A DNA stretch of 64,000 bases, from the NCBI GenBank assembly GCA_049303795.1, contig JBAQNM010000007.1:13665-77664 (forward strand), in the 5' to 3' direction. Shown piece after piece: positions 1,754 to 62,247 of the stretch. The notes under the pieces are model-generated. The model was not told the origin of the DNA and searched no databases. It saw only the letters and a program-made list of their open reading frames with translations. The translations under genes and the position numbers were made by a program. Within the stretch, counting starts at the first letter, position 1. Every line of letters begins with the position of its first letter. The DNA is from Candidatus Moraniibacteriota bacterium (GTDB lineage: Bacteria > Patescibacteriota > Minisyncoccia > Moranbacterales > UBA2206).

Positions 1754-1774
1754 AATTTTTTTAAACAGTTTTCT

Positions 1775-2698: not shown

Positions 2699-2702
2699 AT
2701 AT

Positions 2703-6606: not shown

Positions 6607-7274
6607 TTTGATAAATAAATAATATATGCATCTAGAATTATTATAGCAAAAATATTCATAAAATACGAATATAAAAAAGATTTTGTTTTATAAGCCAAAA
6701 TTCCGCCCGTAATTGAAAATAAAATCATCGGTAATATTTCCCAAGAAAAGGATTTAGTCACAAGTATTATAAAAAAATAGCTTCCAGCTTGAATAATAAT
6801 AGACCAATAGTGAAATTTTTTTTGAAAAAAAGAAATTATAACACCACGAAAGAAAAAATCATGAATGAAAAATATAAAATTAACAATAATTAGTTCATAG
6901 ATTAGATAGCTCCAAAAACTGGAAAGGACATTAGGAGGGAGTTTGTAGCCTGATTGAAATCCCGAATAATTTAGGAGTAAATAAAAAAGGAGTAATGAAA
7001 ATAAAAGAAGTCCACTTCCCCAACGAAGAGCAATTCCTCGATTTTTGAGATTAAATCCAAAATCAGCCATCTTTTCTCCAAGTATTATTTTGATGTAAAT
7101 AAGGGGGAAAATAACCAGAAAAAAAATATTTTTAGTAAGTAGTTGGGCAGAGTTTTCTGCTGGAAAAGTAGTATTAAGAAAAAGACAAATGAAAAGTACA
7201 AGAGCATTTAATAGTAATGCCTGGTTATTAATAAATGAGTTTAAGTTGTATCGATTTTTTTTAAATAAGCGCAT
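6603..7274 (-). CDS. Polytopic membrane protein, possibly a degenerate CPBP (CAAX protease/Abi)-like family member
   Basis: 223-aa ORF with at least six predicted TM helices. FIHDFFFRG resembles the EExxFRG motif and ITGGILAYKTKS the C-terminal CPBP motif. The catalytic residues are not all recognisable. Confidence 0.35.
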   Translation of the reverse strand: MRLFKKNRYNLNSFINNQALLLNALVLFICLFLNTTFPAENSAQLLTKNIFFLVIFPLIYIKIILGEKMADFGFNLKNRGIALRWGSGLLLFSLLLFYLLLNYSGFQSGYKLPPNVLSSFWSYLIYELIIVNFIFFIHDFFFRGVIISFFQKKFHYWSIIIQAGSYFFIILVTKSFSWEILPMILFSITGGILAYKTKSFLYSYFMNIFAIIILDAYIIYLSK

Positions 7275-7313
7275 GGAATGTTGATGGGTTAAATTTATTT
7301 AGGAGTGAGTTTT

Positions 7314-7961
7314 TTATTTTTGGGCTTTTTTTGCTTCAGCTTCATCTTTTCTCTCCATGAGAATAAGTGTGAATGCTGTGCAAGCAGTAGCTGTTTCGAT
7401 TGGAGCGAAATTTACTCCAAAAAAGAACATTTCGACACCTGTTCCTGTGATGAGTGAAAACCATTTCATGATTTTTAACTTCATTTTTTTCTTGGATCCA
7501 AATGAGGAATGAGAGCCGCAAAAAAGCATGGCAAAAAAAATTGTAATTGAAGTCATAAGCGTGATGAGTGTTCCGATGAGGGGTAGTGAGCCGACTCCAA
7601 TAAAATCCAGATAATCTTTAGCCATTGCTACCAGTATGGCAAGAAAAAAAAAGACATCAGAAAATTTAATCAAACGAATAAGTGACAATGTGCTGGTTGG
7701 TTTTATATCTTCGGTGGGATTTGAATTTTGCGCGCCAGAACGCCTCTTGAGTCCTTCTGTTCTATTAATAGAATCTTGAAAATCACGACGCCATTTTTCC
7801 GATTGAGCTTTATTTCCATCGCTTCCTGAAGACATCCCAGGAGGCATATTTGGTCGATTGTCGATAGCCTTACCACCTTCCTTTATTCTTTGTGTATTAT
7901 TTATGGAATCTTGAAAAGCGCTATTTTGTTGGTCGTTGTATTTATTAAATGATTCTCCCAT
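7314..7961 (-). CDS. Hypothetical membrane protein with a disordered N-terminal region and two or three C-terminal TM helices
   Basis: 215-aa ORF located directly downstream of VirB4 in the same operon orientation. No recognisable catalytic motif. Confidence 0.4.
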   Translation of the reverse strand: MGESFNKYNDQQNSAFQDSINNTQRIKEGGKAIDNRPNMPPGMSSGSDGNKAQSEKWRRDFQDSINRTEGLKRRSGAQNSNPTEDIKPTSTLSLIRLIKFSDVFFFLAILVAMAKDYLDFIGVGSLPLIGTLITLMTSITIFFAMLFCGSHSSFGSKKKMKLKIMKWFSLITGTGVEMFFFGVNFAPIETATACTAFTLILMERKDEAEAKKAQK

Positions 7962-7973
7962 AGGTAGCTATTA

Positions 7974-9818
7974 TTAAAAATTCGCTTCTTCCTCTTCAAG
8001 ATCTTTTTTGGCTTGTTCTATTTCTAGAAGTTGTGATGGATCTGTTGTGATGATTTGATCTTCGGAATAGGAAGCAACAACCTTAATGGCAACATGTTTG
8101 GCTCCGGCAAAGAAAATACCTTCCCCGATGTTGCTTTCTAGAAGCAGAAATTTTTCCTGATCAGTGAGATAAAATGTGTCGCAAATGATATCAATTGCGG
8201 CTGGTGATTGCTTGAGAAGAAGTTGGAGAGAAGAGTTTGTCACAATCGCTTTGCCATAGCGGGAAGATAAAAAGTCATTAACATCCTGAGTAATTGTGGT
8301 AAGTCCGGTGAAATATTTTCTGCAACGCTTAGCAATTCCAAATAAAAATGAAGCAGCGTCCTCTGATCTCATCATAACCCAAGCTTCATCAACTAAAACT
8401 AGGCGTTTCTTGATGTCAGTACGCATTTCATTCCAAATGAATTGTAGAATTGTATACATAGCAATCGGTCGTAACTCTTCTTCCATATCACGAATATTAA
8501 AAACAACCAATTGATTATCAATATTGATAGTTGTCGTGTTATTTAAAAAGCCACCAAAAATACCATCAGTATATTTTTCTAGTCGAATAGCGAGCATTTC
8601 TCCTCCGTCCATACTGCGGAGAACTTGATGCAGATCGGCCATAGTAGGAAAAGATTTTTTTGAGAGCATATTGAAGTCTGTTTCGATGGTAATATCTCTG
8701 ATGCTGTAAGTTTCATGAATAGCACGATCCAAAATAGAGTCTTCCTCAGGAGTGATTGAGCCAAGCATGATATGTAAAAGTCCGAGAAGATTAGCAATAT
8801 TATTACGTAAAACATCTTCTGGATCATCATCTTTACCAACTTTTGGTAGGTCGAAGGGGTTGAGATGATTAGTTGAATTGAGGGAGATTTTAATAAAAGA
8901 ACCATCAACAGTGTCACAAAGATGGCGATATTCGTTTTCTGGATCAATAATAATGACATTTGTACCAATCATCATAGAACGCAAAACTTCCAATTTAATC
9001 GTGTAACTTTTTCCAGCTCCAGATTTAGCGAAAACAACCATATTGGCATTTTCCATTTGAAAACGATCAAAAATAATCAAACTGTTGTTGTGGCGATTAA
9101 TACCATAAAGAATTCCGGCATTTGATGAAAGTGTGGATGAGACAAAAGGAAAAGTTGTAGAGAGAGGCGAACTATTCATATTAGTTCCTATGTCTAATTC
9201 GTCATTTGCCAGTGGTAATGAAGAGTTGAATCCCTGCTCTGCTTTAAAAATAGCTGGCTTAACATAAACTAACTGAGCTTCCATGATGGACTCGATGCTT
9301 TTGATGATCTCTGTTACGGATTTTTCGCTATCACCATAGGCAGTTATATAGAGAGCAAAACGAAAGAATTTTTCTGTGCCTTGTTGGAGTTTGTCACGTA
9401 ATTCGTCGATATCTCTTTGGGCGGTTTCCAATGCAGGATCACGGATAATGCCTTTTTCCTGTTCGATCATGAGTTGTGATTCTACTCGTGTGGCACTAGT
9501 GCGCAAGTTTTTTAGAATATCGCTGGTATCAACAGGATGAATGAACATTGAAATATCGATTGGCATATCAATATTTATAATGGGAGAAAACCAATTACTG
9601 TGAAGAAATCTTGGATAAGCAATGACAGAAATTGTTTGAGCAATTGTTTCTCCAATGCGAATAGATTTTGGCATGATTTGAATTGCAGCCGGAGCAATCA
9701 AGTCATTGAGCTTGGCTAATCCCTCTTGGTAGTATTTTTCTGACTCCAAAACCTCGTCTGTTGGCTGGACATTTTTTTGAGCATTAGCTGTGTCTTTTTT
9801 TGAAAAAAAGTTTAACAT
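7974..9818 (-). CDS. virB4: VirB4/TrbE/PrgJ-family conjugative ATPase, C-terminal ATPase portion
   Basis: Walker A VFAKSGAGKSYT and Walker B LVLVDEAW are present. The size and motif order are typical of VirB4-family ATPases. Confidence 0.85.
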   Translation of the reverse strand: MLNFFSKKDTANAQKNVQPTDEVLESEKYYQEGLAKLNDLIAPAAIQIMPKSIRIGETIAQTISVIAYPRFLHSNWFSPIINIDMPIDISMFIHPVDTSDILKNLRTSATRVESQLMIEQEKGIIRDPALETAQRDIDELRDKLQQGTEKFFRFALYITAYGDSEKSVTEIIKSIESIMEAQLVYVKPAIFKAEQGFNSSLPLANDELDIGTNMNSSPLSTTFPFVSSTLSSNAGILYGINRHNNSLIIFDRFQMENANMVVFAKSGAGKSYTIKLEVLRSMMIGTNVIIIDPENEYRHLCDTVDGSFIKISLNSTNHLNPFDLPKVGKDDDPEDVLRNNIANLLGLLHIMLGSITPEEDSILDRAIHETYSIRDITIETDFNMLSKKSFPTMADLHQVLRSMDGGEMLAIRLEKYTDGIFGGFLNNTTTINIDNQLVVFNIRDMEEELRPIAMYTILQFIWNEMRTDIKKRLVLVDEAWVMMRSEDAASFLFGIAKRCRKYFTGLTTITQDVNDFLSSRYGKAIVTNSSLQLLLKQSPAAIDIICDTFYLTDQEKFLLLESNIGEGIFFAGAKHVAIKVVASYSEDQIITTDPSQLLEIEQAKKDLEEEEANF

Positions 9819-10504
9819 TATTTTAGTTCCATTTTGGTCGTATCAACATAACCCATCGTATCGAAAATGGTCGGGTTGTACGAGTTAAATAGTAATTCAA
9901 TTAATTCGTTAGTCTTAAGAGGTGCAATTTTTAATCCGATACCTGAAAGTCCGGCGATAATATGATCAACTCTTTGATAAAGTGGAGCTTTGTATGTTTC
10001 AAATGTTTCTCTTTTTTCCAGAATATTTTCTTTAGGATTAATCATGTTCTTGATGTTGCTAAAAAACCCTTTTTCAGTGCTTTCAACGGGAGAAAACGGC
10101 ACAACCATATAGAAAGTTTTTTCCATGATATCAGAGAGTGAAACAAGTTGCTTAATAAAATCTTTGTATTCTGAAATTTGCAGTCGCATTAGCTCTGTTT
10201 TTTGAGTTTTCTCTTTTTCGGTTATATATTCCATGTAGGTATCAATATTCAATCGGCGTGAATTTATGAGAATTTGCAGTGGAAAGTCAACAGAGTTGAG
10301 AAAATTTTGATATTGCATGATAATTGCTTCTTGTTCATCAGAGGCCTTGAGATCGAAGTTGATAGAAGACACCTCTAAAACAGCTCGCAGTGAGCCATTT
10401 TTAAGAACAATAACATCTTCTTTAACTTCTTCTACCACGAGATATTTTTGAGTAGGAGAGGCGACTGGTTGCTTGGCTAATTTTGAAGAAAATAGAGTTT
10501 CCAT
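9818..10504 (-). CDS. VirB4 N-terminal domain encoded as a separate ORF (split virB4)
   Basis: 228-aa ORF whose TAA stop overlaps the ATG of the ATPase ORF (TAATG on the coding strand). NGSLRAVLEVSSINFDLKASDEQEAI...FLNSVDFPLQI resembles the N-terminal domain of Gram-positive VirB4 homologs. Confidence 0.5.
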   Translation of the reverse strand: METLFSSKLAKQPVASPTQKYLVVEEVKEDVIVLKNGSLRAVLEVSSINFDLKASDEQEAIIMQYQNFLNSVDFPLQILINSRRLNIDTYMEYITEKEKTQKTELMRLQISEYKDFIKQLVSLSDIMEKTFYMVVPFSPVESTEKGFFSNIKNMINPKENILEKRETFETYKAPLYQRVDHIIAGLSGIGLKIAPLKTNELIELLFNSYNPTIFDTMGYVDTTKMELK

Positions 10505-10531
10505 TGTGATTTTATATTGATATTTTAAATT

Positions 10532-10936
10532 TTATCTTTTTTGTGTATCTAATATGCGTGATAGATCTTTTGCTCTTTCAGAATCAAATACTTTTTTTGC
10601 AGGACTTTTAGTCTGTATTTTTTGAGTAGCAACTGTTGGGTGGTATTCTTTTCTTTCAGCTACTCTGTGCCATACATATAATTTTGGTCGTTTAATGAAA
10701 AGAATCGATGAGCTGACAAGTTTTATTAGGGGTTGGTTGTAGGGTCGATAGAAAGCTAGGGCTCCAAAAATAACAGCGATTATAGCGGCAGAAAGAAAAA
10801 AAGTGGCCTTATCAAGTGTGCTATAAGCAATGAGAAGTATGACGCCACCAATTGCCAGCCAGCCAAGCTGTTTAGCGGTTAGTGGGCCAACGAGCTTATC
10901 TTCAATATCAATAAATTGAGGAATGTTAAAAATCAT
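10532..10936 (-). CDS. PrgI/VirB3-like small membrane protein
   Basis: 134 aa. IPQFIDIEDKLVGPLTAKQLGWLAIGGVILLIAY is followed by two TM helices. It sits immediately upstream of VirB4, as PrgI/VirB3 does in Gram-positive T4SS. Confidence 0.55.
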   Translation of the reverse strand: MIFNIPQFIDIEDKLVGPLTAKQLGWLAIGGVILLIAYSTLDKATFFLSAAIIAVIFGALAFYRPYNQPLIKLVSSSILFIKRPKLYVWHRVAERKEYHPTVATQKIQTKSPAKKVFDSERAKDLSRILDTQKR

Positions 10937-10949
10937 TTCTTTGTTTTTT

Positions 10950-12047
10950 TTATTTCTCTTTCAAGTTTATCACATTCTTTAAAATTTGTCTTGGTGTTGT
11001 GATGTTTGTGTTAGTTTGTTTCTGTGTGGTGGGAAGATTTTGATTAATATTTCGCGCCGAGGAAAGGATATTTTTTTCAGTTGAGAATGTTTGCGGTGAA
11101 GAAAAATGAATTCTACTTAGAGTAGGCTCTGTTGGTGTGCTTTCCAGTTTTTCTTTTTGTGGTAGGTCCTTGCGCCAAGCGCTGAGGCGATCGCTGTCAG
11201 ATTGAAAAGTGGCTGAATCATTTTTTGACACTTGAGCAGCTTCCAAATTAGTGTTGTATATGGTATTTGGGGTGGCTAGCGGTCTAGTTGCTCGTGGACG
11301 TTCCATTTGTTTTTCTAATACTGGTGGAAAGATGATCTGATAAATTTTATTGTTTATTGTGAGTAGGGTTTTTTCTTCGAAGGATTTTAGGATAAGAGCT
11401 AGTTTTTCCCGATCTTGGCTAGAAAGTTGTCGAGCATTCGCATTTTTGAATAAATAATTTCCCCGAACAATTGAATCGCGATTAGAAACACCAATATTAA
11501 AAGTGTAATCAGAGAGCCAATTTTTAATGGATGGTCGGACTAAATTAGGTGTGGTTGCAAGTTTAATTTGGTCAGAAGTGATTAATTGTTCAGCAATCTC
11601 AGGATATTTTTCCAGGGCATCTTCCAGTGACAATTTTTCTGTTTGAGCTTGGTAGGCTTTTTCTTGCGAGTCATCCCTGATTATTCTATTGAGAATTATT
11701 TGTGAAATTTCTTGGGCAATATCGGTGCTAATATTTATTTCTTTAGAGAAAATCAAAGGAAATTGTTCAAATTTAACTTCTCCAAAATAATAACCGCGAA
11801 TAGCTCTAGCGATAGTGGCTAGTTGGATGTAAGTTAGTCCGTATTTTTTTCCAATTTCTTGAATTTTTTCAGAAGACAGAAGTTTATCTTTAATTGGTTC
11901 TGGCAATAATAAAAACTTTCCTTGCCTTTCTTTTATATTTTCAACAGTTTCATCATCAGGATTTAGGGTTGTAAAAACAGCATAAGGGGTTACGCAGATA
12001 TATTTTTGCGCATCCGGTTTTAGTTTGGAAAATGGTATTTCTAACAT
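10950..12047 (-). CDS. Hypothetical protein, paralog A of a tandem pair
   Basis: 365-aa soluble ORF. It shares an N-terminal region (DPDDET..IKE+Q.KFL.LPE) and an internal block (NWLSDYTFNIG.SN..S..RG.YLFKN) with the adjacent ORF 12080..13435. Confidence 0.5.
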   Translation of the reverse strand: MLEIPFSKLKPDAQKYICVTPYAVFTTLNPDDETVENIKERQGKFLLLPEPIKDKLLSSEKIQEIGKKYGLTYIQLATIARAIRGYYFGEVKFEQFPLIFSKEINISTDIAQEISQIILNRIIRDDSQEKAYQAQTEKLSLEDALEKYPEIAEQLITSDQIKLATTPNLVRPSIKNWLSDYTFNIGVSNRDSIVRGNYLFKNANARQLSSQDREKLALILKSFEEKTLLTINNKIYQIIFPPVLEKQMERPRATRPLATPNTIYNTNLEAAQVSKNDSATFQSDSDRLSAWRKDLPQKEKLESTPTEPTLSRIHFSSPQTFSTEKNILSSARNINQNLPTTQKQTNTNITTPRQILKNVINLKEK

Positions 12048-12079
12048 AGTATAAATAATATTAGTTAATTTCGAGTGCT

Positions 12080-13435
12080 TTATAGGATCGCAGCAGCTCT
12101 CAGAGCCACAATGTTATCTCCATTAAGATTTTTTTTAATTTCAGTTCTTTCTTCAGGGGCAAAACTATAAAACCGTTTTTCGATAGCGTCACGAATTATT
12201 TTCTGTTTTTCATTTACTGGCGCTTCTTCTCTGCAATAAGAAGAGAGCGTATCGTGCCAATCTTGCTTGGTCCAATGAGCTGTGTCAAGATGGGTATAGG
12301 CATTTTCAACAATATATCTTTCTGTATCACTTAGTGTTGATAAGTTTTGCTCTTCTTTGATTTTTGCAATTTCTTCTGGAGTATTGAATTTGTGATAGAT
12401 AAGGATATCTGTTCGATTTTTTTGAATAATATTATTAATTGCCTTTTGTGAATTGATGTCTTTATTATGCATTAAAAAGGCAGTGTATATTTCCAGGGTT
12501 ATCTCATTTTTTTCAGCTAGAATATAGGCAGCAGCAGCATCTCCCTTTTCTGCTTTATCAATAAGTTCACTAGTTGGAAGATTTCTTTCTTTATATTCAT
12601 TAGCGATCTTTTTCAATGCATTGGCATCTTTCAAAAAATTATGCAGAATAATTTCAGAAACAGTTGATTGGGAAAGTTTTTTTTGCGAAATATCAAGTGG
12701 ATTTGCGAAGATGATTTGTTTTTTTTCTGTGTCTATTGTGAGCAAGGTTTTTTCTTCAAAGGATTTTAGGATAGAAGAAAGCCTTTCGCGATCTTGATTG
12801 GAAAGTTGATGACAGTTTTTATTTTTAAAAAGATAATCTCCCCGAATGGCAGAATTATGATTGGAAATGCCAATATTGAAAGTATAATCAGAGAGCCAAT
12901 TTTTGATAGTTGGTTTGGCGAGACTGGAATTCAGAGAGAGTGTTATAGGGGAGGCTGTTATTTGTTGTTTTTCAATTTCAGGATATTTTTCTAGTGCTTC
13001 AATAATATTTAATTCTTCTTTTTGTTTTAGAATTGCTTTTTCTTGAGAGTTGTCATTAATTATTTTGGTAATAATTATTTGTGAAATTTCTTCGGCTAAT
13101 TCCAGATCAATATTCATCTCCTCAGAAAGAATTGAGGATATTTCCTCTAGTTTGATTTTGTCAAAATAATAAAAAAGGATAGCGCGGGATATGTCAGCTA
13201 GTTGCAAAAGTTCCAGGTGGTATTTTTTTCCAATTTCTTGAATTATTTCAGCTGTTTGCGGAGAAACAAGTTTGTTTTTTGCTGATTCTGGTAATTTCAG
13301 GAATTTTTCTTGTTTTTCTTTTATTTGGTCAAAAGTTTCATCATCAGGATCTTTTGTCATTGAAACATCAAAAGGAGAAGTGCATCTCGCCATTAATAAA
13401 TCTCTATTTAACTGAGAAGATAATATTTTCAACAT
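12080..13435 (-). CDS. Hypothetical protein, paralog B of a tandem pair, with a C-terminal GDAAAAY-motif extension
   Basis: 451-aa ORF paralogous to 10950..12047. Its C-terminal extension contains KGDAAAAYILAEKNEITLEIYTAF, which recurs in the cytoplasmic tail of the VirB6-like ORF. Confidence 0.5.
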   Translation of the reverse strand: MLKILSSQLNRDLLMARCTSPFDVSMTKDPDDETFDQIKEKQEKFLKLPESAKNKLVSPQTAEIIQEIGKKYHLELLQLADISRAILFYYFDKIKLEEISSILSEEMNIDLELAEEISQIIITKIINDNSQEKAILKQKEELNIIEALEKYPEIEKQQITASPITLSLNSSLAKPTIKNWLSDYTFNIGISNHNSAIRGDYLFKNKNCHQLSNQDRERLSSILKSFEEKTLLTIDTEKKQIIFANPLDISQKKLSQSTVSEIILHNFLKDANALKKIANEYKERNLPTSELIDKAEKGDAAAAYILAEKNEITLEIYTAFLMHNKDINSQKAINNIIQKNRTDILIYHKFNTPEEIAKIKEEQNLSTLSDTERYIVENAYTHLDTAHWTKQDWHDTLSSYCREEAPVNEKQKIIRDAIEKRFYSFAPEERTEIKKNLNGDNIVALRAAAIL

Positions 13436-13450
13436 GACTTTTTTGACTTG

Positions 13451-15304
13451 TTACACAACTACACCCCCAGTGTTAGATCTTAAAGCGGCGGCATTGTTAG
13501 GGGTTAGTCTCTTTCGAACTTCATCTTTAGCTTGTCTTGGCATGCCATTCCAAGCGGTAATTGTGGCATTTATAATTCTAGCCCTTTCTGTGGTTTTCTT
13601 GTTGAATTCAGCTGTTTGTGCAGGTGTTGCACCTACTGGTAGTCCTGGTATGGGTTGTGTTATTGATGTCCAATCTTGATCATTCCATTTTTCAGCTGCA
13701 ATACTACCCATTTGTTGATTTGCAATGTATTGAGCTGTATCAATTGGTGCGTTGCCTGCAGCAACGGCTGCAGCACTAGCAGCGCTTGCGTTGGCTTGTG
13801 TTTGACGATTTCCAAGCTCATCTGGATCATTTGATTTATCAATTGCAACTAAATCATTTCTGCTTTGCTTAACCTTACTATTAATAGCTTTTCTAAGTTT
13901 TCCATCTTTATCTTCACCTTTAGCTTTAATTTTAGCTGTGAATGCAGAATAAGTAGCTTGATCCATGCTTTTATCTTCAGACAATCGATAAGCAGCAGCA
14001 GCATCTCCATTTGCAGCTCTTGATTTGAGTTCAACCTCTTCAAGTCCTTGCTTTTTATATTCCTCAGATTGTTTTTTCATGGCAGCCTCTTCAGCTCCCT
14101 TAACACCAAATTGTGCAGCCCTCCTCGCCGCTCTTGCATCAACATTTCTCTTTGAAATAGGACTATTATCACGCATTTGTTGCAACCTAGCTTGCACTCC
14201 ACCTGTAATTCCAGTTTGCTTTGAAACAAAACCAGCAGCGCCACCTAGTGGATTCTTTGCTAACCATTTTCCAGCTTTTATTCCACCATTCACAACCGCA
14301 TTGGCTCCAGCCAGACCAGATTTTTGCGCTTCAATAATTCCCAACCAAAGGACGATGACTGGCATTGAGAAAAAAGCTGCCTTCACAAGAAGATCTTGAA
14401 GAGGATTAGCAATTGTTGTTCCAGTTACTTGTGTTCCAGCTACGGTTTTTAATGTTCCAGATTGAAGGCTTATAACAGCAATCATTAATGAGTTAGCGAC
14501 AAAAAGCATAAATACCATAATTGGTCCGGAAAAACAATGCTTCATGAAGGTTGTCCACCATTCACTGCCGGAGCTGGCCAATTTTGTGCCAGGCAGAATT
14601 GAGCCAACAAAAGCAATCGGGGAAAACATAATATAGATTGCCAAAGTGACAGTTCTAATAACAAGCAGAACGGCTATAATAAGCAGTGTCATGCCAAAAA
14701 TGAAAGTAAAAATGATGGCAAAAAATAAAAAAACAAGTGATGGATCTTGGGTTGTTGAAAAGCTTGTTACCCCACTTCTATCAATAATAGAAACAAAGGA
14801 CGTGTTGCCTCCTAAGCCTTGCAAAAGACTGTACATGATAACATTAGAAACATCAACAATAAATCGCGCAATTGGGTAGCTGAAATTGACCAAGAGTGCC
14901 ATTATGATCAGATTTTGTAAAACTGCTTTATAGTTATATTTACTTACCTGGAAAACAGTGGCAAAAGCGGAAAAAAGCAAAACCATTATAAAAGCAATAT
15001 TAAAAACATCCCGAACTGCACGCCATGTTTCATAGACTGCGGCATTATTAATAATAGCTGTCATAACTTGAGGATCAACAATCCATTGAAAAATTACTTC
15101 AGCCATAGAAAGAAGGATTAAGACAGCATCTAGTATGAGCTGAAGAATTCCTTGTACAAGACCTTGTCCCCAAAAAGCGTTTGCTCCGTTAGAATAAAAA
15201 AAGACAAAAAATAAAACCAAAAAACCGACTGCCAGTAAGCTTTTTTTAGGATTATTTTTTTTGGTTAAGGCGACTTTTTGTTTTAATTTTGATAAAATTG
15301 ACAT
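13451..15304 (-). CDS. VirB6/TrbL-like polytopic membrane protein with a hydrophilic C-terminal tail
   Basis: 617 aa. It has an N-terminal signal/TM segment, multiple TM helices over about 350 aa, and then a charged C-terminal tail. Its position upstream of the PrgI-like and VirB4 ORFs matches Gram-positive T4SS organisation. Confidence 0.5.
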   Translation of the reverse strand: MSILSKLKQKVALTKKNNPKKSLLAVGFLVLFFVFFYSNGANAFWGQGLVQGILQLILDAVLILLSMAEVIFQWIVDPQVMTAIINNAAVYETWRAVRDVFNIAFIMVLLFSAFATVFQVSKYNYKAVLQNLIIMALLVNFSYPIARFIVDVSNVIMYSLLQGLGGNTSFVSIIDRSGVTSFSTTQDPSLVFLFFAIIFTFIFGMTLLIIAVLLVIRTVTLAIYIMFSPIAFVGSILPGTKLASSGSEWWTTFMKHCFSGPIMVFMLFVANSLMIAVISLQSGTLKTVAGTQVTGTTIANPLQDLLVKAAFFSMPVIVLWLGIIEAQKSGLAGANAVVNGGIKAGKWLAKNPLGGAAGFVSKQTGITGGVQARLQQMRDNSPISKRNVDARAARRAAQFGVKGAEEAAMKKQSEEYKKQGLEEVELKSRAANGDAAAAYRLSEDKSMDQATYSAFTAKIKAKGEDKDGKLRKAINSKVKQSRNDLVAIDKSNDPDELGNRQTQANASAASAAAVAAGNAPIDTAQYIANQQMGSIAAEKWNDQDWTSITQPIPGLPVGATPAQTAEFNKKTTERARIINATITAWNGMPRQAKDEVRKRLTPNNAAALRSNTGGVVV

Positions 15305-15410
15305 AATACTTTTTTAGGACCTAGATAAAATATAACTTGATAGAGTTGCCTCGTGTGATTATGCGTAGTAATTTTTAATTTGAAAATTTTTCCAGTAATG
15401 AATCTGATTT

Positions 15411-16226
15411 TTAATTAGTGATTTTTGTTAATACTTTTTCACTAGCTTTTCTGAGGGCTCTTGTTACAGCCATATTGACAACGGCAGCAGTCAACTCAAC
15501 TACGTTTGCAGCATTGATGATTGAATCGGTGTTGATATTTTCAAGACGAGACTGGCTTTCTTTATATAGGATTCCAGGTCTTCCATCTTTGCTATCATAT
15601 CCTTGATTAGCAATGGCCATTGCGGTTGAAGAATCCTTTTTGTTTTGGTAGTATTGTTCGCGTGCTTCACTGGCGCGCATTTTTACAGCTGCAGCATTAT
15701 TACCATCCAATACGAAACGATTCAATTCAGAAAGATTCCCCGCTGCTAGGATTTCATCAGGATTACCAGAATAGGTTGATTTCCATTGTGGAATACCGCT
15801 ATTATCAACATCCTTATCATCAATAGCAACTTCGTTACTGATAATTTCTTGCATCGCCTTTGCATAGTCGGTGTTTATTCCTCTGTAGGCGGTTTTAATG
15901 TAGGAATTGATAAATTTATCAGCTCTTTTTTCGGGGCCTTTGATGATGTAATCTTGCCAATCAGTGATTATTCTTGCTGAATTTTCAACCATACCCAACT
16001 GAGTTAATAATAAGATGGGAAGTTGTTTTTGCAGGCCCTGAACAATTCCTTTGACTGTATAGGAAAGCTCTTCCATGGCTTGTTTTTCTATTTCAGCAGC
16101 TAGTGCGTCCCATGCCTTGGCGGAGTTTGTTTTTATTGGTGAAAATGAAATTAGGCAAACAGCAAAAAAAACAAAAAATAATTTTTGAAGAGAAAAAAAG
16201 TTAGTTGATTTTTTTTTATTATTCAT
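15411..16226 (-). CDS. Secreted hypothetical protein
   Basis: 271-aa ORF with an N-terminal signal-like hydrophobic segment and no recognisable motif. Confidence 0.4.
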   Translation of the reverse strand: MNNKKKSTNFFSLQKLFFVFFAVCLISFSPIKTNSAKAWDALAAEIEKQAMEELSYTVKGIVQGLQKQLPILLLTQLGMVENSARIITDWQDYIIKGPEKRADKFINSYIKTAYRGINTDYAKAMQEIISNEVAIDDKDVDNSGIPQWKSTYSGNPDEILAAGNLSELNRFVLDGNNAAAVKMRASEAREQYYQNKKDSSTAMAIANQGYDSKDGRPGILYKESQSRLENINTDSIINAANVVELTAAVVNMAVTRALRKASEKVLTKITN

Positions 16227-29642: not shown

Positions 29643-30494
29643 TTATGAAGGAAATATTTCTTCTTTGTTATGCACCTCCCCAACCTCGCTCAGGAATTCT
29701 TTGATTATTTTTGGATCATTTTGAATTGGAGTGGAAATGTTCCAAAGTATATTAAATTGGTTTTTTAGTAGTTGACGAAGCTCTTTGCTTTCAACGATAA
29801 AACCAAAATTCTCGGCCTTGGAAGACATAAACATCACTTTATTGCCATAAGCCCAATATCCCATAGAAAATTCAACCCCAGCAGGGGCGATTCGCACTTC
29901 GCGTTTCACTTCCTTGCCCGGTGCCAAAAATATGTTTTTTTCTATATTTTCTGATTTATCCAGTGGCCAGACTACTTTTATATAGATATTGCTACGAATT
30001 CTTTTCTTATTTAGTTCATGTAAAAATTCTTCTCCAACCACTTTCATCACGTCTTTTACCGGCCAGCACAGTTCTGTTTCTAGATCATTATATAAAAGCA
30101 CATCTTTTAGCATTGTCTTTAATTCTTCTATTCCTTCAAAATAATGAAATTTTGGGCTAATAAAGTCTGTCTTTTGGGATGACTTTAGGCTTTCTAGGAC
30201 TGATTCAAAATCAGTTCGTGTGCTTTCCAGAGTGTTAATTTTTTCATTTATGATGGTCTTTATCGTTTCTGGGGCAACTGCTTGCCACATTTTCACTTTG
30301 TTTTTCTCGCTTTGTGATACTAGGCCGTGTTGGGCAAGGTTTTCGAGTAGTCCATAAAGGGTTGATCTGGGCATATTTAGACGTTTGGCGAGATTTCCCG
30401 TTGGTGAAATTCCGCTATCTAGCAGGGCTAGATATATATCAGAATGTTCTTTTTTTAAGCCAAATTTATCAAATATTCTGTATAACATAAGCAA
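29643..30494 (-). CDS. TrmB-like HTH transcriptional regulator, paralog 1 of 4
   Basis: N-terminal wHTH (EHSDIYLALLDSGISPTGNLAKRLNMPRSTLYGLLENLAQHGLV) plus a C-terminal domain of about 190 aa. It shares this architecture with ORFs 47261, 57953 and 61465. Confidence 0.6.
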   Translation of the reverse strand: MLMLYRIFDKFGLKKEHSDIYLALLDSGISPTGNLAKRLNMPRSTLYGLLENLAQHGLVSQSEKNKVKMWQAVAPETIKTIINEKINTLESTRTDFESVLESLKSSQKTDFISPKFHYFEGIEELKTMLKDVLLYNDLETELCWPVKDVMKVVGEEFLHELNKKRIRSNIYIKVVWPLDKSENIEKNIFLAPGKEVKREVRIAPAGVEFSMGYWAYGNKVMFMSSKAENFGFIVESKELRQLLKNQFNILWNISTPIQNDPKIIKEFLSEVGEVHNKEEIFPS

Positions 30495-35420: not shown

Positions 35421-36362
35421 ATGCAAATCAAGGAATTGAAGACACAATTTTTGGAATATATGGAGATTGAGAAGGGGCGTTCTCAAAAGACCATTGAAAA
35501 TTATGATCACTATTTGAATCGTTTTTTGGACTGGTCAAAAATAACAAAACCTTCAGAAATTACAGTCGAACTGGTTCGGAATTTTCGTGTCTATTTAAAT
35601 CGGTTTGAAAATGAAAAAGGTGAAAGATTGAAAAAGGTAACGCAAGGGTTTTATGTTATCGCTTTGCGTAGTTTTTTGAAATTTCTAGCAAAACGGGATA
35701 TTTCAGCTCTACAAGCGGAAAAAATTGAAATTGGCAAATCAAGTTCTCGTGAGGTGGAATTCCTAGAGGTTGATGAAGTGGAGAGAATCTTAAATGAAGC
35801 AAATGGAAAGGATATAAAAGCATTGCGTGACAGGGCTATTTTGGAGTTACTTTTCTCTGCTGGCCTGCGTGTTTCAGAACTTACTAATATTAATCGAGAG
35901 AAAATTGACTTGAAAACTCAAGAATTGAGTGTGCGAGGCAAGGGTGATAAGGTTCGCGTAGTGTTTATTTCTAATGAAGCATCTTTGGCGATTAAAGAAT
36001 ATCTAGATAAAAGAATGGATGTTGATCCGGCCCTTTTTGTGCGGGATGTTGCTGGTTTGGCTAAATTCGAAAAAAAAGGCTCCAATAAAGCTGTGGATAA
36101 CCTGAGGTTAACACCAAGATCAGTACAAAGAATCGTCAAATATTATGCAACTAAAGCGGGAATTGTGAAAGATGTCCATCCACATACTTTGCGTCATTCT
36201 TTTGCTACAGATTTGCTTATTAATGGAGCGGATATTCGCTCAGTACAAGCCATGCTTGGGCATTCTTCAATCACAACAACACAGGTTTATACACACGTAA
36301 CAAATAAACAACTCAGAGAGGTGCATCAAGCTTTTCATTCAAGGAGAAAAAAGACTAAATAA
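35421..36362 (+). CDS. Tyrosine site-specific recombinase, XerC/XerD family
   Basis: N-terminal SAM-like domain. The C-terminal catalytic motifs are LRHSFATDLLINGADIRSVQAMLGHSSITTTQVYTHV (R..H..R..Y). Confidence 0.88.
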   Translation: MQIKELKTQFLEYMEIEKGRSQKTIENYDHYLNRFLDWSKITKPSEITVELVRNFRVYLNRFENEKGERLKKVTQGFYVIALRSFLKFLAKRDISALQAEKIEIGKSSSREVEFLEVDEVERILNEANGKDIKALRDRAILELLFSAGLRVSELTNINREKIDLKTQELSVRGKGDKVRVVFISNEASLAIKEYLDKRMDVDPALFVRDVAGLAKFEKKGSNKAVDNLRLTPRSVQRIVKYYATKAGIVKDVHPHTLRHSFATDLLINGADIRSVQAMLGHSSITTTQVYTHVTNKQLREVHQAFHSRRKKTK

Positions 36363-36407
36363 ATTTAGTCAGTTTTAAGCGAAATTTTTTATAATTGCTG
36401 TTTAGGG

Positions 36408-37064
36408 CTATTTTTCATCAACAATTTTCAAAAAGCTCTCTATTTTCTTTTTATATCTTTTCAAAAAATATTTCAAATCATAAGTGAAAAGTTCCGGCGA
36501 AACTTTCATTTCTTTTTGAAGTGCATTCCATTTGTAATATAGAACACCGCTGGCTTCTTTATCTGCAGGTTTAATCGGTCCATTATAAAAACCAAAATAA
36601 AAATCAAACTTATTGGCTATTTTAACTACTTTCTTTTGCATAATTTTCTCAAAAACATCCACATCGGTTTCAATAAATTGGATAAGAGCTGAACGATCTA
36701 AGTAGTTTTTTAACAAATGAAAAGTCTTCTTGAAATCTTCTTTGGAATCCAATACGAATGATGGTACATGTAATTCCTGAAGGGTTTCTGACATGGTTGT
36801 GTAGGTAGGAGTAAATCCAAAGACTACATGCCCGCCAATTGTTTTGTCGATCAATCCTGGATTATGATTTTTTTCCAAAGATCTTTTTTGTAAAATAAGC
36901 TCTTTATCAGGAGTGAAAAGTAAAATTTGAACAATTTCACAAGCCTTGGTTGGTTTACCAGTTTTATTGAAAATTCTTTTTTGTTCACGATAAAACTCCT
37001 CTCGCTTCATAGGAGTTGGCTTGGTTGAGAACGGTAGTTTATATGTTGTGATTGTTTCGGACAT
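36408..37064 (-). CDS. Hypothetical protein
   Basis: 218-aa ORF with no confident motif. There is a weak Nudix-like GGHVVFGF stretch, but the Nudix box is not complete. Confidence 0.4.
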   Translation of the reverse strand: MSETITTYKLPFSTKPTPMKREEFYREQKRIFNKTGKPTKACEIVQILLFTPDKELILQKRSLEKNHNPGLIDKTIGGHVVFGFTPTYTTMSETLQELHVPSFVLDSKEDFKKTFHLLKNYLDRSALIQFIETDVDVFEKIMQKKVVKIANKFDFYFGFYNGPIKPADKEASGVLYYKWNALQKEMKVSPELFTYDLKYFLKRYKKKIESFLKIVDEK

Positions 37065-37080
37065 AAAATGGGTAAAATGT

Positions 37081-37152
37081 TGTGGGACCAGCTGGATTCG
37101 AACCAGCGACCAAGAGATTATGAGTCCCCTGCTCTACCACTGAGCTATGGTC
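37081..37152 (-). tRNA. tRNA-Met (anticodon CAT). It cannot be distinguished by eye from initiator or tRNA-Ile2; tilS is present nearby.
   Basis: The reverse complement folds as a cloverleaf: GGGACCA acceptor, D-arm GCTCAGTGGTAGAGC, anticodon loop CTCATAA, T-arm GGTTCGAATCC. Confidence 0.8.
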
Positions 37153-37162
37153 CCTATTTTTT

Positions 37163-37238
37163 TGTGGGTATATCCCGACTCGAACGGGAGACCTCTACAA
37201 TGTCAATGTAGCGCTCTAACCAACTGAGCTATACACCC
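37163..37238 (-). tRNA. tRNA-Val (anticodon GAC)
   Basis: The reverse complement has GGGTGTA acceptor, D-arm GCTCAGTTGGTTAGAGC, anticodon stem-loop CTACA-TTGACAT-TGTAG, and T-arm TCCCGTTCGAGTCGGGA. Confidence 0.8.
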
Positions 37239-43777: not shown

Positions 43778-45565
43778 ATGATTAAATCGATATTAAGGAA
43801 TATCTGGAATTCAATTCAAAAACAGCCATTAGATATCTGGTTTTTTTGTTTATTTTTATTGACTTTTACGCTTAGTGTGAGAAAAGTAGTGTTATACTTT
43901 CCCATAAAAGGAACTCTGAATGAATATGCCGGCATATATGTTTATATGTCCGATGTATTTCTTTTTTTGGCGATCTTCGCTTGGTCGCTGATTATATTAT
44001 GCAATAAAAGAAGACAGCTGTCAATAGACAGTACTAGTATCTATAGACTTATCCACAGGATGTTCAAGAAAAATAGCATGGAAGAATTAGATAATCAGGG
44101 GTTATCCACAGAAGAAAAAGGCTATTTTAAAGTATTAATTTGTAATTTTAATAAAATGTTCCACGTGGAACATTTTCGAAGAAGGTTTAATTTAAAATGT
44201 TCCACGTGGAACAATAGACAGGACATTGTAATATTTGCTATTCCCCTTTTCTTTCTTTTTTGGTCTTTTTTCTCTATGTATTGGTCTGAAAATAAAGTCA
44301 TTAGTCTTTATCGCTCGTTTAAATTTTTAGAGGCATATCTTTTATTTTTGTATGTAGCATTTAGAATTGTTCCACGTGGAACATTTTTAGATGATAACGA
44401 TGGTAATAAGGATATAGTTAAAAAAGTAATTCCTTATTTTAAAGCTATTTTATTTGGTCTTATATTTATCACGTTGTTTGATCATTATTTGTGGGATATT
44501 TGGCAAGGTCAGGTTTTATTTTGGATTGCTTGTGGTTTATTGGTCGGTTTTGAGTTTTGTACCAGGAATGGTAGTAATTTTTTAGTTTGTAAGGGATATA
44601 AGCAATCAAATGAAGATCAGGTTAGTGTGAAAACTAATAATGTTCCACGTGGAACATCTACTATTATGAAGTCTTTTTTTGTTATAATCATAGGGGTTGG
44701 TTTTATTCAAGCACTAATTGGTATTTTGCAATTTATTTTAACACATTCTATTGGACTTTTCTGGCTAAAAGAGAGTCAAATTAGTCCGCATATTGCTGGT
44801 GTTGCTAAGATAATTTTTAATGATGATGTTTTTATTCGTGCCTATGGCTTATTTCCACATCCAAACATATTAGGTGGATTTCTTGTTTTCTCAATAATAA
44901 TTACTACTTTATATTTAAAAATGTTCCACGTGGAACATTTGAACAATAAATTACTTAAAAAATGTTCCACGTGGAACATTTTAAACAAAAAAGAATTTAA
45001 TAATGTTCCACGTGGAACATTTAGTATTTTTATTGATCTGATAAAATTTAATTATTTAAATGTTATTTTAGTAGCTCAATTCGTTGCTATTTTATTGAGT
45101 TTTTCTAAGTCAGCCATACTAGCTTTGATTATTGCATTTTTATATATCTATGTTCCACGTGGAACATCTTCCGTGGGTATGTTAAGAAAAATGTTCCACG
45201 TGGAACATTTTAAATTAAAAATTTCAATCCTAGCCGTGTTTATTTCTGGTGTTGTTTTCTTGAGTCTTAATTATGAAGCATATTTAATTAAATCAACAAA
45301 GGAAAGGATGGATTACATCGCTATTTCTTGGCAAATAATATCAAGCAATCCAATTATAGGTGTTGGCACTGGACAATATATAATAAACGCTGAAATAATA
45401 AATCCAAATTTAGCTTATTGGCAATATCAGCCTGTGCATAATGTTTTTCTTTTTATTTGGAGTGAATTGGGGATTGTTGGATTGGTTTTGTTTATTTTAT
45501 TTTTGTGGAAACTATTTCATCTCAATGAGGTTGAGAATGTTCCACGTGGAACATTTAAGGAATAG
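43778..45565 (+). CDS. O-antigen ligase family (Wzy_C-like) polytopic membrane protein carrying ten in-frame palindromic-repeat insertions
   Basis: 595-aa continuous ORF. The C-terminal region (NPIIGVGTGQYIINAEI..QPVHNVFLFIWSELGIVGLVLFILF) is paralogous to the Wzy_C ORF at 1..617. The interspersed peptides MFHVEH, NVPRGT and CSTWN are the same DNA palindrome read in three frames. Confidence 0.55.
   Translation: MIKSILRNIWNSIQKQPLDIWFFCLFLLTFTLSVRKVVLYFPIKGTLNEYAGIYVYMSDVFLFLAIFAWSLIILCNKRRQLSIDSTSIYRLIHRMFKKNSMEELDNQGLSTEEKGYFKVLICNFNKMFHVEHFRRRFNLKCSTWNNRQDIVIFAIPLFFLFWSFFSMYWSENKVISLYRSFKFLEAYLLFLYVAFRIVPRGTFLDDNDGNKDIVKKVIPYFKAILFGLIFITLFDHYLWDIWQGQVLFWIACGLLVGFEFCTRNGSNFLVCKGYKQSNEDQVSVKTNNVPRGTSTIMKSFFVIIIGVGFIQALIGILQFILTHSIGLFWLKESQISPHIAGVAKIIFNDDVFIRAYGLFPHPNILGGFLVFSIIITTLYLKMFHVEHLNNKLLKKCSTWNILNKKEFNNVPRGTFSIFIDLIKFNYLNVILVAQFVAILLSFSKSAILALIIAFLYIYVPRGTSSVGMLRKMFHVEHFKLKISILAVFISGVVFLSLNYEAYLIKSTKERMDYIAISWQIISSNPIIGVGTGQYIINAEIINPNLAYWQYQPVHNVFLFIWSELGIVGLVLFILFLWKLFHLNEVENVPRGTFKE
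44166..45554. repeat. Cluster of 10 copies of the perfect palindrome (A)TGTTCCACGTGGAACA(T). Copies are at 44166, 44207, 44368, 44640, 44921, 44962, 45003, 45150, 45191 and 45537. Sub-arrays have an exact 41-bp period and unique 23-bp spacers.
   Basis: Read directly from the sequence. The core is a 16-bp perfect palindrome, extended to 22-24 bp (AAAATGTTCCACGTGGAACATTTT) in several copies. It contains no stop codon in any of six frames. It was not seen elsewhere in the window. Confidence 0.9.
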
Positions 45566-47260: not shown

Positions 47261-48046
47261 ATGTTAAACGAAAACCAAAGAGCTAAAATAAAATCTGCTC
47301 TTTTACAATTAAATATGACAGAAAAAGAGATTGCTGTTTATATTTCAGTCCTGCAATTAGGGGAGTCTAGTATTCCAACTCTGTCCAAGGAAACCGGTTT
47401 TAGCCGGGGGACTGTCTACGATTTGGTAGAAAAGCTAAAAAACGGAGGATTTTTAGCGGAGATTAAAAAAGGCAAAAAAAGACGTTTCGTGCCGGAAAGT
47501 CCAACTAATAAATTATATAAAATTTTGGACGGAAAGCATGATCAACTTAAGAAAATGCAACACGAAGTCGATGAAGTTTTGCCAATTTTGCGTTCGATTA
47601 ATGCCAAAGAGGATTTCAAACCGCAAATACGAACCTATTTTGGAGAAAAAGGCTTTCGCCAAGTTTGGGATGAAATTTTTTCCTATGAAGGTAAAAATTT
47701 TTTGAGCATCGCGCGGATAGAAACATTCATTGCTTTTGCCGGAGAAGAATTTTTAGATGAAATTCTTTCTAGAAAAAAGAAGCTTGGATTTGTTAGTCGC
47801 GCAATCAACGAAGATTCACTTTTGGCTCAGAATATGCAAAACAAAGATACACAAGAAAACCGAGAGACACGACTCGTGCCAAAAGATTTTACATTCCCCT
47901 CAACAGAGATAATTTTCGGCGATAAAATTGCAATGTTCTCAACTGACAAAGAAAATATAATTCTTCTTGTTGAAAGCAAGGATTTCGCCGAAACTCATAG
48001 GGCATATTTTGAAATGATGTGGAAGTTTTTGGAAAAGTCCGTTTAA
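47261..48046 (+). CDS. TrmB-like HTH transcriptional regulator, paralog 2 of 4
   Basis: wHTH MTEKEIAVYISVLQLGESSIPTLSKETGFSRGTVYDLVEKLKNGGF plus a C-terminal domain of about 170 aa. Confidence 0.6.
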   Translation: MLNENQRAKIKSALLQLNMTEKEIAVYISVLQLGESSIPTLSKETGFSRGTVYDLVEKLKNGGFLAEIKKGKKRRFVPESPTNKLYKILDGKHDQLKKMQHEVDEVLPILRSINAKEDFKPQIRTYFGEKGFRQVWDEIFSYEGKNFLSIARIETFIAFAGEEFLDEILSRKKKLGFVSRAINEDSLLAQNMQNKDTQENRETRLVPKDFTFPSTEIIFGDKIAMFSTDKENIILLVESKDFAETHRAYFEMMWKFLEKSV

Positions 48047-57952: not shown

Positions 57953-58696
57953 ATGGAAATATTAGAGGAAAAATTAAAGCTTTTAGGGTTAAATGAAAAA
58001 GAAGCCATAATATATCGGGCGATATTACAAGGGAAAAAAGCAACAATCATAGATCTTGCCAAAGCGACAGGGACAAAGAGAACGACAGTTTATCATTGTT
58101 TAGATGCTTTAGTGGAAAAAAGTTTGGTGAATAGGGTCATGAAAGATGGGCATAAATATTATTATGCTGAAGATCCAGAGGAGAGTTTAAAATTAATACT
58201 CAAGGAAAAAGAGGATGTGATTAAGAAATTAATTCCTGATTTGAAATCTATATTCGGCACAAATCTTTATCAGCCGGAAATTGAGATATATAGAAATATA
58301 AATGGAATCCGAAAAATCTTAGAAGACATACTTAGTGTTAAAGAGTCAGTAGTTAGATATTACTTATCTGAATATAATGTGGAAGACATGGCTGGAGCGG
58401 ATTTTGTAGATGAATTTGTAAAAAAAAGAATTGCCTCAGGAGTGAAAAGCTTGGCGCTTCGATCATTTAAGTATAAGCCTGAAAGGGAGAAGATTTCAAC
58501 GCATGCTAAGCAGCTTCGAGAGGTGCGCTTCGTTCCGGAAAATATAATTATCAAACCATATATTTGTATTTATGATGATAAGGTGACAATGATTTCCACA
58601 AAAGAAGAAAAGCTGGGCTTTATAATTAAGTCGCATGAATTTGCCGAAGCACAAAAAGCGATTTTTGATATGATTTGGAATGGGGTGGCTATATAA
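57953..58696 (+). CDS. TrmB-like HTH transcriptional regulator, paralog 3 of 4
   Basis: wHTH LNEKEAIIYRAILQGKKATIIDLAKATGTKRTTVYHCLDALVEKSLV plus a C-terminal domain. Confidence 0.6.
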   Translation: MEILEEKLKLLGLNEKEAIIYRAILQGKKATIIDLAKATGTKRTTVYHCLDALVEKSLVNRVMKDGHKYYYAEDPEESLKLILKEKEDVIKKLIPDLKSIFGTNLYQPEIEIYRNINGIRKILEDILSVKESVVRYYLSEYNVEDMAGADFVDEFVKKRIASGVKSLALRSFKYKPEREKISTHAKQLREVRFVPENIIIKPYICIYDDKVTMISTKEEKLGFIIKSHEFAEAQKAIFDMIWNGVAI

Positions 58697-61464: not shown

Positions 61465-62247
61465 ATGGAAATTAAGGAAGTTTTGGAAAAATTTGGGCTA
61501 AAGGGGAGAAAAGCGGATGTTTATCTGGCGACTTTGGAATTGGGAAGTGCCAGCGTGATTGAAATAGCTAAAAAAGCCCAGATTAAAAGAACTACTTGCT
61601 ATAATGTGCTGTTGGATCTTATCGACGAAGGCTTGATTTCGCAGATAACCAAAGGGAAAAGAAAATTATTTATTGGTGAAGACCCAAAAAAAATAATGGA
61701 GGAAATAAAGAATAAAGAGAGACTATTTTCTGAAATTTTGCCTCAACTCCAGTCCATTCACAATATCAAGACGGGTAAGCCAAAAATGCGCTATTTTGAA
61801 GGAAAAGAAGGGATAAGAGAAGTGCGCGAAGACACATTAATGCATGGTGGAAAAGAAATATTAGCCATATATTCATATGATATTATAGATATTCTCGGCA
61901 AAGAATTTACGGATAATTATATTAAAAAAAGAATCCAAAAAGGATTTCATGTTAGAACAATTGCTCCGGATGATGATGAGATGATAAAAAATTACACAAC
62001 CAAGGATCAAGAACAATTGAGGAGCACAAAACTTATCAGTGCCAAGGATTTTCCTTTTTCAATCGAAATCCTTATTTATGGCAATAATTATGTGGCGCTA
62101 ATTTCCGCCAAGGAAGAAATAGGACTGATTATAGAAGGCTCAGAAATTCACAAAACCATGAAACTTATTTTCGAGCTGATTTGGAAGTTGTTACCGGAAA
62201 TAAAAGTGAAAGAAAGATATTTGTCAGTGAGCAAGGAGGAAAAATAG
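61465..62247 (+). CDS. TrmB-like HTH transcriptional regulator, paralog 4 of 4
   Basis: wHTH KGRKADVYLATLELGSASVIEIAKKAQIKRTTCYNVLLDLIDEGLI plus a C-terminal domain. Confidence 0.6.
   Translation: MEIKEVLEKFGLKGRKADVYLATLELGSASVIEIAKKAQIKRTTCYNVLLDLIDEGLISQITKGKRKLFIGEDPKKIMEEIKNKERLFSEILPQLQSIHNIKTGKPKMRYFEGKEGIREVREDTLMHGGKEILAIYSYDIIDILGKEFTDNYIKKRIQKGFHVRTIAPDDDEMIKNYTTKDQEQLRSTKLISAKDFPFSIEILIYGNNYVALISAKEEIGLIIEGSEIHKTMKLIFELIWKLLPEIKVKERYLSVSKEEK

Follow-up and report, generated by a model that had tools for sequence, protein, structure and literature searches.

Ten probable parS sites form a dense array inside an O-antigen-ligase-like gene of a Moranbacteria chromosome

The window, that is, the whole stretch of DNA analysed here, comprises 64,000 nt of contig JBAQNM010000007.1 (positions 13,665 to 77,664, assembly GCA_049303795.1) from a Candidatus Moraniibacteriota bacterium, a member of the candidate phyla radiation (CPR). 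It contains a gene of the Wzy_C/O-antigen-ligase family that carries ten exact copies of the 16-bp palindrome TGTTCCACGTGGAACA, which are probably parS sites for the chromosome-partition protein ParB. The copies span positions 44157–45553 (ca. 1.4 kb), with 0.00 copies expected from shuffled sequences, and the remainder of the window contains no further match with up to two mismatches and a lone, weak one with three (at 53844). A previous sequence-only reading, made without database searches, had noticed this confinement of ten palindromes to 1.4 kb, and the exact scan agrees with it. The 41-bp spacing that it gave for neighbouring copies was also right (44157/44198, 44922/44963/45004 and 45151/45192), although its first two start positions were 9 bases too high and the others were off by 1. 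The sequences separating these neighbours are not related to each other. An extended form of 24 bp, described there as frequent, is exact as AAAATGTTCCACGTGGAACATTTT in three of the ten copies, and ATGTTCCACGTGGAACAT is exact in nine, the exception being the copy at 44368, where a T precedes the 16-mer. The gene and the sites are listed below with the amino acids (aa) that each site encodes; the loops named are segments with a predicted local distance difference test (pLDDT) value below 50 in an AlphaFold2 model of the product.

43778–45565, + strand: Wzy_C/O-antigen-ligase family gene for a polytopic membrane protein of 595 aa; an intact open reading frame (ORF) containing all ten copies
44157–44172, no strand: parS-like site 1, MFHVEH, aa 127–132; a 24-bp perfect palindrome including flanks; loop 124–145
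44198–44213, no strand: parS-like site 2, CSTWNN, aa 141–146; 41 bp beyond site 1
44368–44383, no strand: parS-like site 3, IVPRGT, aa 197–202; loop 201–204
44641–44656, no strand: parS-like site 4, NVPRGT, aa 288–293; loop 267–292
44922–44937, no strand: parS-like site 5, MFHVEH, aa 382–387; loop 386–413; orthologous position kept in most homologues
44963–44978, no strand: parS-like site 6, CSTWNI, aa 396–401; 41 bp beyond site 5
45004–45019, no strand: parS-like site 7, NVPRGT, aa 409–414; 41 bp beyond site 6
45151–45166, no strand: parS-like site 8, YVPRGT, aa 458–463; loop 462–474
45192–45207, no strand: parS-like site 9, MFHVEH, aa 472–477; 41 bp beyond site 8
45538–45553, no strand: parS-like site 10, NVPRGT, aa 587–592; C-terminal tail, segment 585–595

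The palindrome contains no stop codon in any frame, as can be read directly from its sequence, and the ORF stays open across all of the copies, which are translated according to their phase as MFHVEH (three copies), CSTWN (two) or [NIY]VPRGT (five), just as the earlier reading had found. The self-complementarity of each copy also allows neighbours to pair: single-strand hairpins are predicted at 44150–44220 and 44915–45026 with folding energies of −22 and −33 kcal/mol (z = −8 and −10), and the 24-mer alone gives −7.5 kcal/mol. Hairpins between neighbouring copies could be of relevance to the mRNA or to replication.

The assignment of the product to the Wzy_C family, also proposed from the sequence, was borne out by a match to Pfam PF04932 (E = 5.2e-16, residues 430–573) and by 100 % identity, over the annotated 495 aa, to an NCBI entry named O-antigen ligase family protein from Candidatus Moraniibacteriota. 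A hydropathy scan and the AlphaFold2 model (predicted template modelling score 0.73) predict ca. 12 transmembrane (TM) helices, which are modeled with confidence. Segments with pLDDT below 50 correspond to residues 77–112, 124–145, 201–204, 267–292, 386–413, 462–474 and 585–595, most of these low-confidence loops being enriched in Lys and Arg; all ten sites, as well as two DnaA boxes described below, lie inside or at the edge of these segments. The model thus suggests that the sites are tolerated in flexible loops, or in the tail, between TM helices. Neither a sequence search of the PDB nor a Foldseek search with the AlphaFold2 model identified significant structural relatives, the long loops probably spoiling the comparison.

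Background on ParB sites gives the palindrome a candidate identity. parS is the DNA site bound by the chromosome-partition protein ParB (Spo0J), with consensus TGTTNCACGTGAAACA, a definition that is said to go back to Lin and Grossman in 1998 and Livny in 2007. The half-site TGTTCCAC is identical to the left half of the parS located within spo0J of Bacillus subtilis (TGTTCCACGTGAAACA), and the complete 16-mer fits the parS pattern TGTTNCACGTGNAACA. The B. subtilis site within spo0J is itself translated, as NVPRET. Compared with the consensus as written, TGTTCCACGTGGAACA is one base apart (G12) and forms the perfect palindrome of the consensus left half. We also scanned metagenome and viral contigs for two exact 16-mers 31–61 bp apart, recovering at least 138 contigs, many of them short and most from unrelated organisms with 42–70 % GC. 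At least 58 of these 138 have soj/parA directly beside the 16-mer pair by tblastn, and at least 38 of the 58 also show a parB match. Because such pairs adjoin soj and parB in unrelated contigs, the exact 16-mer would be a bona fide parS of ordinary parAB operons. Other dense groups of these sites also exist: three in-frame sites occur inside mnmG/gidA in each of two loci, with a period of 39 bp in one (L176, 3251–3344) and of 48–51 bp in the other (L110, 3944–4058), and seven intergenic sites lie downstream of gyrA in a contig of 27 % GC (L163, 2419–3199).

Relatives of the host gene were collected with the patterns YGL[FM]PHPN and [YF]QPVHN[VI]F, which do not derive from parS and so avoid a bias from words encoded by the sites, and the best 80 of 361 confirmed relatives in species-representative genomes were retained together with flanks of up to 10 kb per side. 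In these 80 species, the core GTT[CT]CACGTG[GA]AAC appears 572 times in the genes (157 kb) and 0 times in 1.116 Mb of flanks, with 1–17 sites per orthologous gene (mean 7.2). The 120 best homologues are from Moranbacteria/Parcubacteria, with 34–73 % identity, and nearly all contain several FHVEH, VPRGT or CSTWN peptides. In an alignment of 34 homologues, the site peptides fall between conserved TM blocks at orthologous positions and keep their phase, and this conservation of position and frame holds between proteins that are 35–50 % identical. The two ordinary-sized Wzy_C paralogues in the genome of the window have no sites, and none was found within 10 kb of dnaA in four genomes. From these comparisons, the array appears to be ancestral to a large Moranbacteria/Parcubacteria clade and not a recent insertion, with sites seemingly gained, lost and split between species while the host gene remains intact. 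Indeed, the gene is an intact single ORF in 77 of 81 orthologues, and its catalytic-type blocks AYGLFPHPN and YQPVHN are invariant in the alignment of 34 homologues, which argues for purifying selection on the host enzyme. Where homologues have few sites or none, the corresponding loops are short.

Some observations on these loci concern the history of the gene. The TM block FDHYLWDIWQGQ (alignment A1) is C-terminal in distant homologues and central in close ones (aa ca. 235–246 in the window), suggesting a rearrangement or permutation of the host gene within the clade. The metagenome-assembled genome (MAG) UBA2206 has two different parS-bearing Wzy_C loci with six sites each (L025 and L045, contigs DCUU01000036 and DCUU01000079), reflecting either two copies per genome or a mixed bin. 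Additionally, a Moranbacteria-like contig (L171, Ga0265295_1006645), whose genes are 60–77 % identical to those of the orthologous loci, contains an intergenic array at 13300–13872, among DnaA boxes directly upstream of dnaA, with a repeat unit of ca. 186 bp, one 41-bp pair and at least five sites, this count being a lower bound because the contig ends within the array.

The conservation of the sites is at the level of DNA. Across 81 genes, the peptide VPRGT is encoded by the exact palindrome in 212 of 214 occurrences, FHVE in 163 of 171 and CSTWN in 139 of 141, as against 0.35 %, 1.2 % and 0.19 %, respectively, predicted from codon usage in these genes. The sequence-only reading would have been refuted by orthologues showing the same peptides without the palindrome; these orthologues have the peptides and retain the palindrome. 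Of 582 sites, 580 retain the outermost T and A of the 16-mer, which in the gene family is embedded in A/T flanks (AAAW-16mer-WTTT). All three phases are frequent (260, 172 and 143 sites). TGTTCCACGTGGAACA is usable in the three frames, whereas the canonical TGTTTCACGTGAAACA produces TGA in one of them; variants with GTGAAAC have 0 occurrences in the CSTWN phase, where they would introduce TGA, and a sub-lineage with the canonical GTTTCACGTGAAAC (read as VSRET and FHVKQ) does not contain any CSTWN-type site. These patterns show that selection maintains the DNA sequence, not the peptide. That FHVEH, VPRGT and CSTWN are a functional protein motif, the identity of the DNA being a by-product, could be supposed from the recurrence of the peptides at conserved loop positions. 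However, a single DNA word yields three unrelated peptides in three frames and its synonymous codons are frozen against codon bias, which rules out a protein motif, and all of the peptides are in low-confidence loops; we therefore regard this explanation as extremely improbable.

Conservation of the nucleotide sequence might also reflect a role at the RNA level, with mRNA hairpins between TM segments pausing ribosomes for membrane insertion or setting mRNA stability. The folding energies given above for the 24-mer and for the hairpins between neighbouring copies (−22 to −33 kcal/mol), together with the position of the sites between TM helices, are in agreement with such a role. Nevertheless, hairpins would tolerate compensatory changes, yet the 16 bases are invariant across copies and species, and this sequence also occurs between genes at oriC in a relative, and beside parAB elsewhere. 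We thus consider a function of the palindromes in the mRNA to be very unlikely.

With respect to spacing, adjacent sites in the gene family are most often 41 bp apart (40 of 501 pairs, from 21 of 80 species), the next most frequent distances being 37, 49 and 59 bp; because the phase alternates from one site to the next, few distances are multiples of 3. A general helical period of 41 bp was considered and rejected, since parS pairs in other bacteria are spread broadly over 34–61 bp without favouring 41, and 37, 49 and 59 bp are also common in the family. We regard the 41-bp distance, of about four helical turns, as a lineage habit whose count is inflated by shared ancestry, without a repeat-spacer architecture. 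The suggestion that the layout resembles an array of clustered regularly interspaced short palindromic repeats (CRISPR) did not hold, because the repeats belong to an intact conserved ORF, in which the supposed spacers are themselves conserved and coding, and Pfam returned no cas domains for the window.

Sites are modified in a number of relatives, although in none of the copies of the window. In 29 of the 80 loci (L001, L003, L007, L015, L021, L026 and L027, among others), GC-rich, hairpin-forming inserts of 21, 30, 36, 42 or 45 nt interrupt copies exactly at the dyad (CAC|GTG); their length is a multiple of 3 in 44 of 47 cases, and they are translated, for instance, as FH-LPTGQAG-VE or VP-PSCAKAPAGK-RGT. 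The 12-mers of these inserts are absent from the flanks in 43 of 47 cases, and the inserts could be a mini-element targeting parS or the result of palindrome-extension events. Loci L027, L028, L058, L060 and L067 contain tandem 19-nt units (e.g., TGTTCCACCCCAGTACAAA) that have the left half-site alone and precede a complete parS.

The sequence-only reading had compared the palindromes to the Rickettsia palindromic elements (RPEs), and a selfish mobile element of this kind, or one similar to repetitive extragenic palindromes (REP) or miniature inverted-repeat transposable elements (MITE), could in principle have inserted in-frame. As with RPEs, palindromic DNA is tolerated in-frame in a protein-coding gene and in surface loops; moreover, all copies share one sequence without a stop in any frame, and the secondary GC-rich palindromes and tandem half-sites of the relatives point to palindrome-driven turnover. 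However, RPEs are selfish elements of 100–150 bp that occur in many unrelated genes, whereas the sites described here have 16 bp (16–24 bp with their flanks), match a protein-binding site, show neither a transposase nor target-site features and are restricted to one gene family in 80 species, with 572 copies against 0 in 1.1 Mb of flanks. Additionally, they keep orthologous positions and frames across proteins of 35–50 % identity, and the identical 16-mer flanks parAB operons in unrelated bacteria. The comparison with RPEs is therefore not sustained, and the mobile-element explanation is largely refuted; we assign it a very low probability.

The position of the array on the chromosome was examined with the help of two further features of the host gene:

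44049–44057, + strand: exact copy of the DnaA box (TTATCCACA), translated as L-I-H-R; located in the first long loop; at ca. +250 in orthologues
44102–44110, + strand: another exact copy of the DnaA box (TTATCCACA), translated as L-S-T; 53 bp beyond the first; at ca. +303 in orthologues

Both boxes are in-frame and just upstream of the first pair of parS-like sites. With up to one mismatch, DnaA boxes reach 3.16/kb in the first long loop, compared to 0.33/kb in the flanks; at least one box is present in 41 of 81 genes, and some relatives have a third, reversed box (read as SVDN). In Moranbacteria, TTATCCACA is also clustered in the oriC spacers, between rnpA and dnaA and between dnaA and dnaN. 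Beyond the left end of the window there are two Wzy_C paralogues, two glycosyltransferases, a flippase and jag, in which the contig ends, and in four relatives an equivalent order continues with yidC-rnpA-rpmH, a spacer with exact TTATCCACA boxes, and dnaA-dnaN. By synteny, dnaA would be situated ca. 7 kb to the left of window position 1, and the array ca. 52 kb from oriC. The distance from the array gene to dnaA is 54.7, 61.5 and 56.3 kb in the three contigs containing both, always on the rnpA side, and 1.7 kb in locus L064. GC skew on the + strand is positive over most of the window, with a negative stretch at ca. 38–44 kb, which broadly fits a leading strand that starts at a left-hand origin and runs to the right; the host gene would be oriented as replication is. 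An origin at the strand switch at 43.2–43.8 kb was rejected because the rpmH-rnpA-yidC-jag/dnaA-dnaN context is found to the left of the window; the switch itself has neither a DnaA-box cluster nor a lasting skew reversal, the skew being positive on both sides of its dip, and the strand of the downstream flank in 35 loci is not consistently +, which also weighs against an origin there.

Several neighbouring features of this region deserve mention. A type-IV-secretion/conjugation-like cluster (614–16226, − strand), with a VirB4/TraG P-loop ATPase, PrgI and many ORFs without Pfam hit, is situated between oriC and the parS gene, with a transcription head-on to the inferred replication; in relatives (L086 and L087) it adjoins the oriC-side Wzy_C paralogues. 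At least four paralogous TrmB-family helix-turn-helix proteins are encoded at 29643–30494, 47261–48046, 57953–58696 and 61465–62247, with more past the right end (L082). An XerC/phage-integrase-type recombinase gene (35421–37238) lies beside tRNA-Met and tRNA-Val, and this locus may be the border of an integrated element.

Taken together, the ten palindromes are probably parS sites, forming together one very dense chromosomal centromere inside coding sequence, on a replichore that would start at oriC ca. 52 kb leftward. The possibility, also contemplated from the sequence, of a high-density array of binding or recognition sites is thereby supported. The 16-bp inverted repeat matches the parS consensus and is associated with parA/parB operons in other organisms, and synteny, measured distances and skew agree in placing it near the origin. 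By analogy with the established biology of ParABS systems, ParB dimers would bind each palindrome and close into sliding clamps, dependent on cytidine triphosphate (CTP), that spread over the adjacent DNA; the resulting partition complex would load SMC and/or be moved by ParA, and would in this way organise and segregate the DNA near the origin.

Several points weigh against this interpretation. Its main weakness is that the presence of ParB in this genome is assumed: there were no ParBc or ParA hits to Pfam among the ca. 50 ORFs of the window, in which dnaA, parA and parB were not found, and tblastn with ParB (Spo0J) queries from B. subtilis (Bsu), Tth and Ccr and with Soj queries returned nothing in 1.48 Mb of Moranbacteria DNA surrounding the array gene (±10 kb, 80 loci) and dnaA (four genomes). 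Searches with the regular expressions GERRxRA and KGGxGKT did not identify ParB or ParA either, nor did walking to both ends of the window and inspecting the dnaA neighbourhoods of relatives; ParB is not within the ca. 85 kb examined around oriC and the array. Weak Soj-like matches were rejected, as they corresponded to formate-tetrahydrofolate ligase. Also, the hairpins that split the dyad and the tandem half-sites in relatives are not accounted for by ParB binding alone and hint at additional palindrome-driven DNA dynamics, and the A/T flanks reach past the canonical site, which an AT-rich context alone may explain. Our confidence in the parS assignment is high but stops well short of certainty because the ParB gene of this genome was not located in the DNA examined.

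Three points would favour another sequence-specific binder, such as a ParB-derived, Noc-like paralogue, a regulator of the host gene or a restriction-modification or recombination enzyme recognising CACGTG: no ParB gene was located, the conserved A/T flanks exceed the canonical 16 bp, and the two conserved DnaA boxes adjoining the array make the locus look like a hub for the binding of several proteins. Nevertheless, 16 of 16 positions are conserved and match parS, restriction-modification sites are short and dispersed, operators are not found as 7–17 copies within the regulated ORF, and an origin-proximal location is what is expected of parS. We did not find any conserved neighbouring DNA-binding gene as an alternative binder, the sole consistently close gene being gyrA, which was identified in 48 loci and lay no more than 3 kb away in 35 of them, more constantly than any other neighbour. 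A binder other than ParB is thus improbable.

As parS sites, the palindromes resemble those of chromosomal ParABS systems such as that of B. subtilis, which are also 16-bp palindromes of the TGTTNCACGTGNAACA type, origin-proximal, present in several copies and commonly intragenic. These systems typically have 1–10 sites over tens to hundreds of kb, in contrast with 10 sites in 1.4 kb here (relatives have as many as 17 per gene), all within one ORF, in three frames and in the same host gene throughout the clade, not adjacent to parAB. Corynebacterium glutamicum (10 sites in ca. 35 kb), Myxococcus and Streptomyces (more than 20 sites) also have many parS sites forming one partition complex near oriC, although their parS regions extend over 20–400 kb with several genes and intergenic sequences, as opposed to ca. 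1.4 kb of coding sequence. In density and period (ca. 41–43 bp) the closely placed palindromes are comparable to the ParB-family sites of sopC from the F plasmid, containing 12 repeats of 43 bp, each with a 16-bp inverted repeat. Whereas sopC consists of near-identical whole repeats in non-coding plasmid DNA, only the 16–24 bp core is repeated here, the spacers are unique coding sequence and the spacing is variable (37, 41, 49 and 59 bp, among others). A plasmid centromere of the sopC type was consequently discarded, the spacers being unrelated and the context chromosomal (rpsA, ftsH, tilS, gyrA, pnp), with no par genes nearby.

Intragenic parS sites and parS clustering are not new per se, and close parS pairs beside parA are common in other bacteria. 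What appears to be new is the density of ca. 7 sites per kb, the restriction of the sites to a single conserved gene for a membrane protein in at least 80 species and the systematic overprinting in three frames. The searchable literature contained nothing on parS or ParB in CPR/Patescibacteria. One might speculate that the centromere is kept in a membrane-protein gene for a function and is more than tolerated there, with transertion of the Wzy_C mRNA, in which transcription is coupled to translation and to insertion into the membrane, tethering the ParB-parS complex to the membrane; this would provide a ParA-independent anchor for the origin region in tiny, gene-poor cells, and the two conserved in-frame DnaA boxes would link the array to the control of initiation. 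We regard this extension as improbable.

If the parS assignment is true, this would be the densest known chromosomal parS array, as to our knowledge there is no denser one. It would also be an unusually clean case of dual coding, with a selected DNA-binding site overprinted in three frames on a functional ORF across an order-level CPR clade, and would illustrate how genome streamlining pushes regulatory DNA into coding loops. The array would explain the odd FHVEH, VPRGT and CSTWN "motifs" in hundreds of proteins that databases list as O-antigen ligases, and would serve as a sequence landmark for the centromere/origin region in Moranbacteria MAGs and as a testable entry into chromosome segregation in CPR bacteria.

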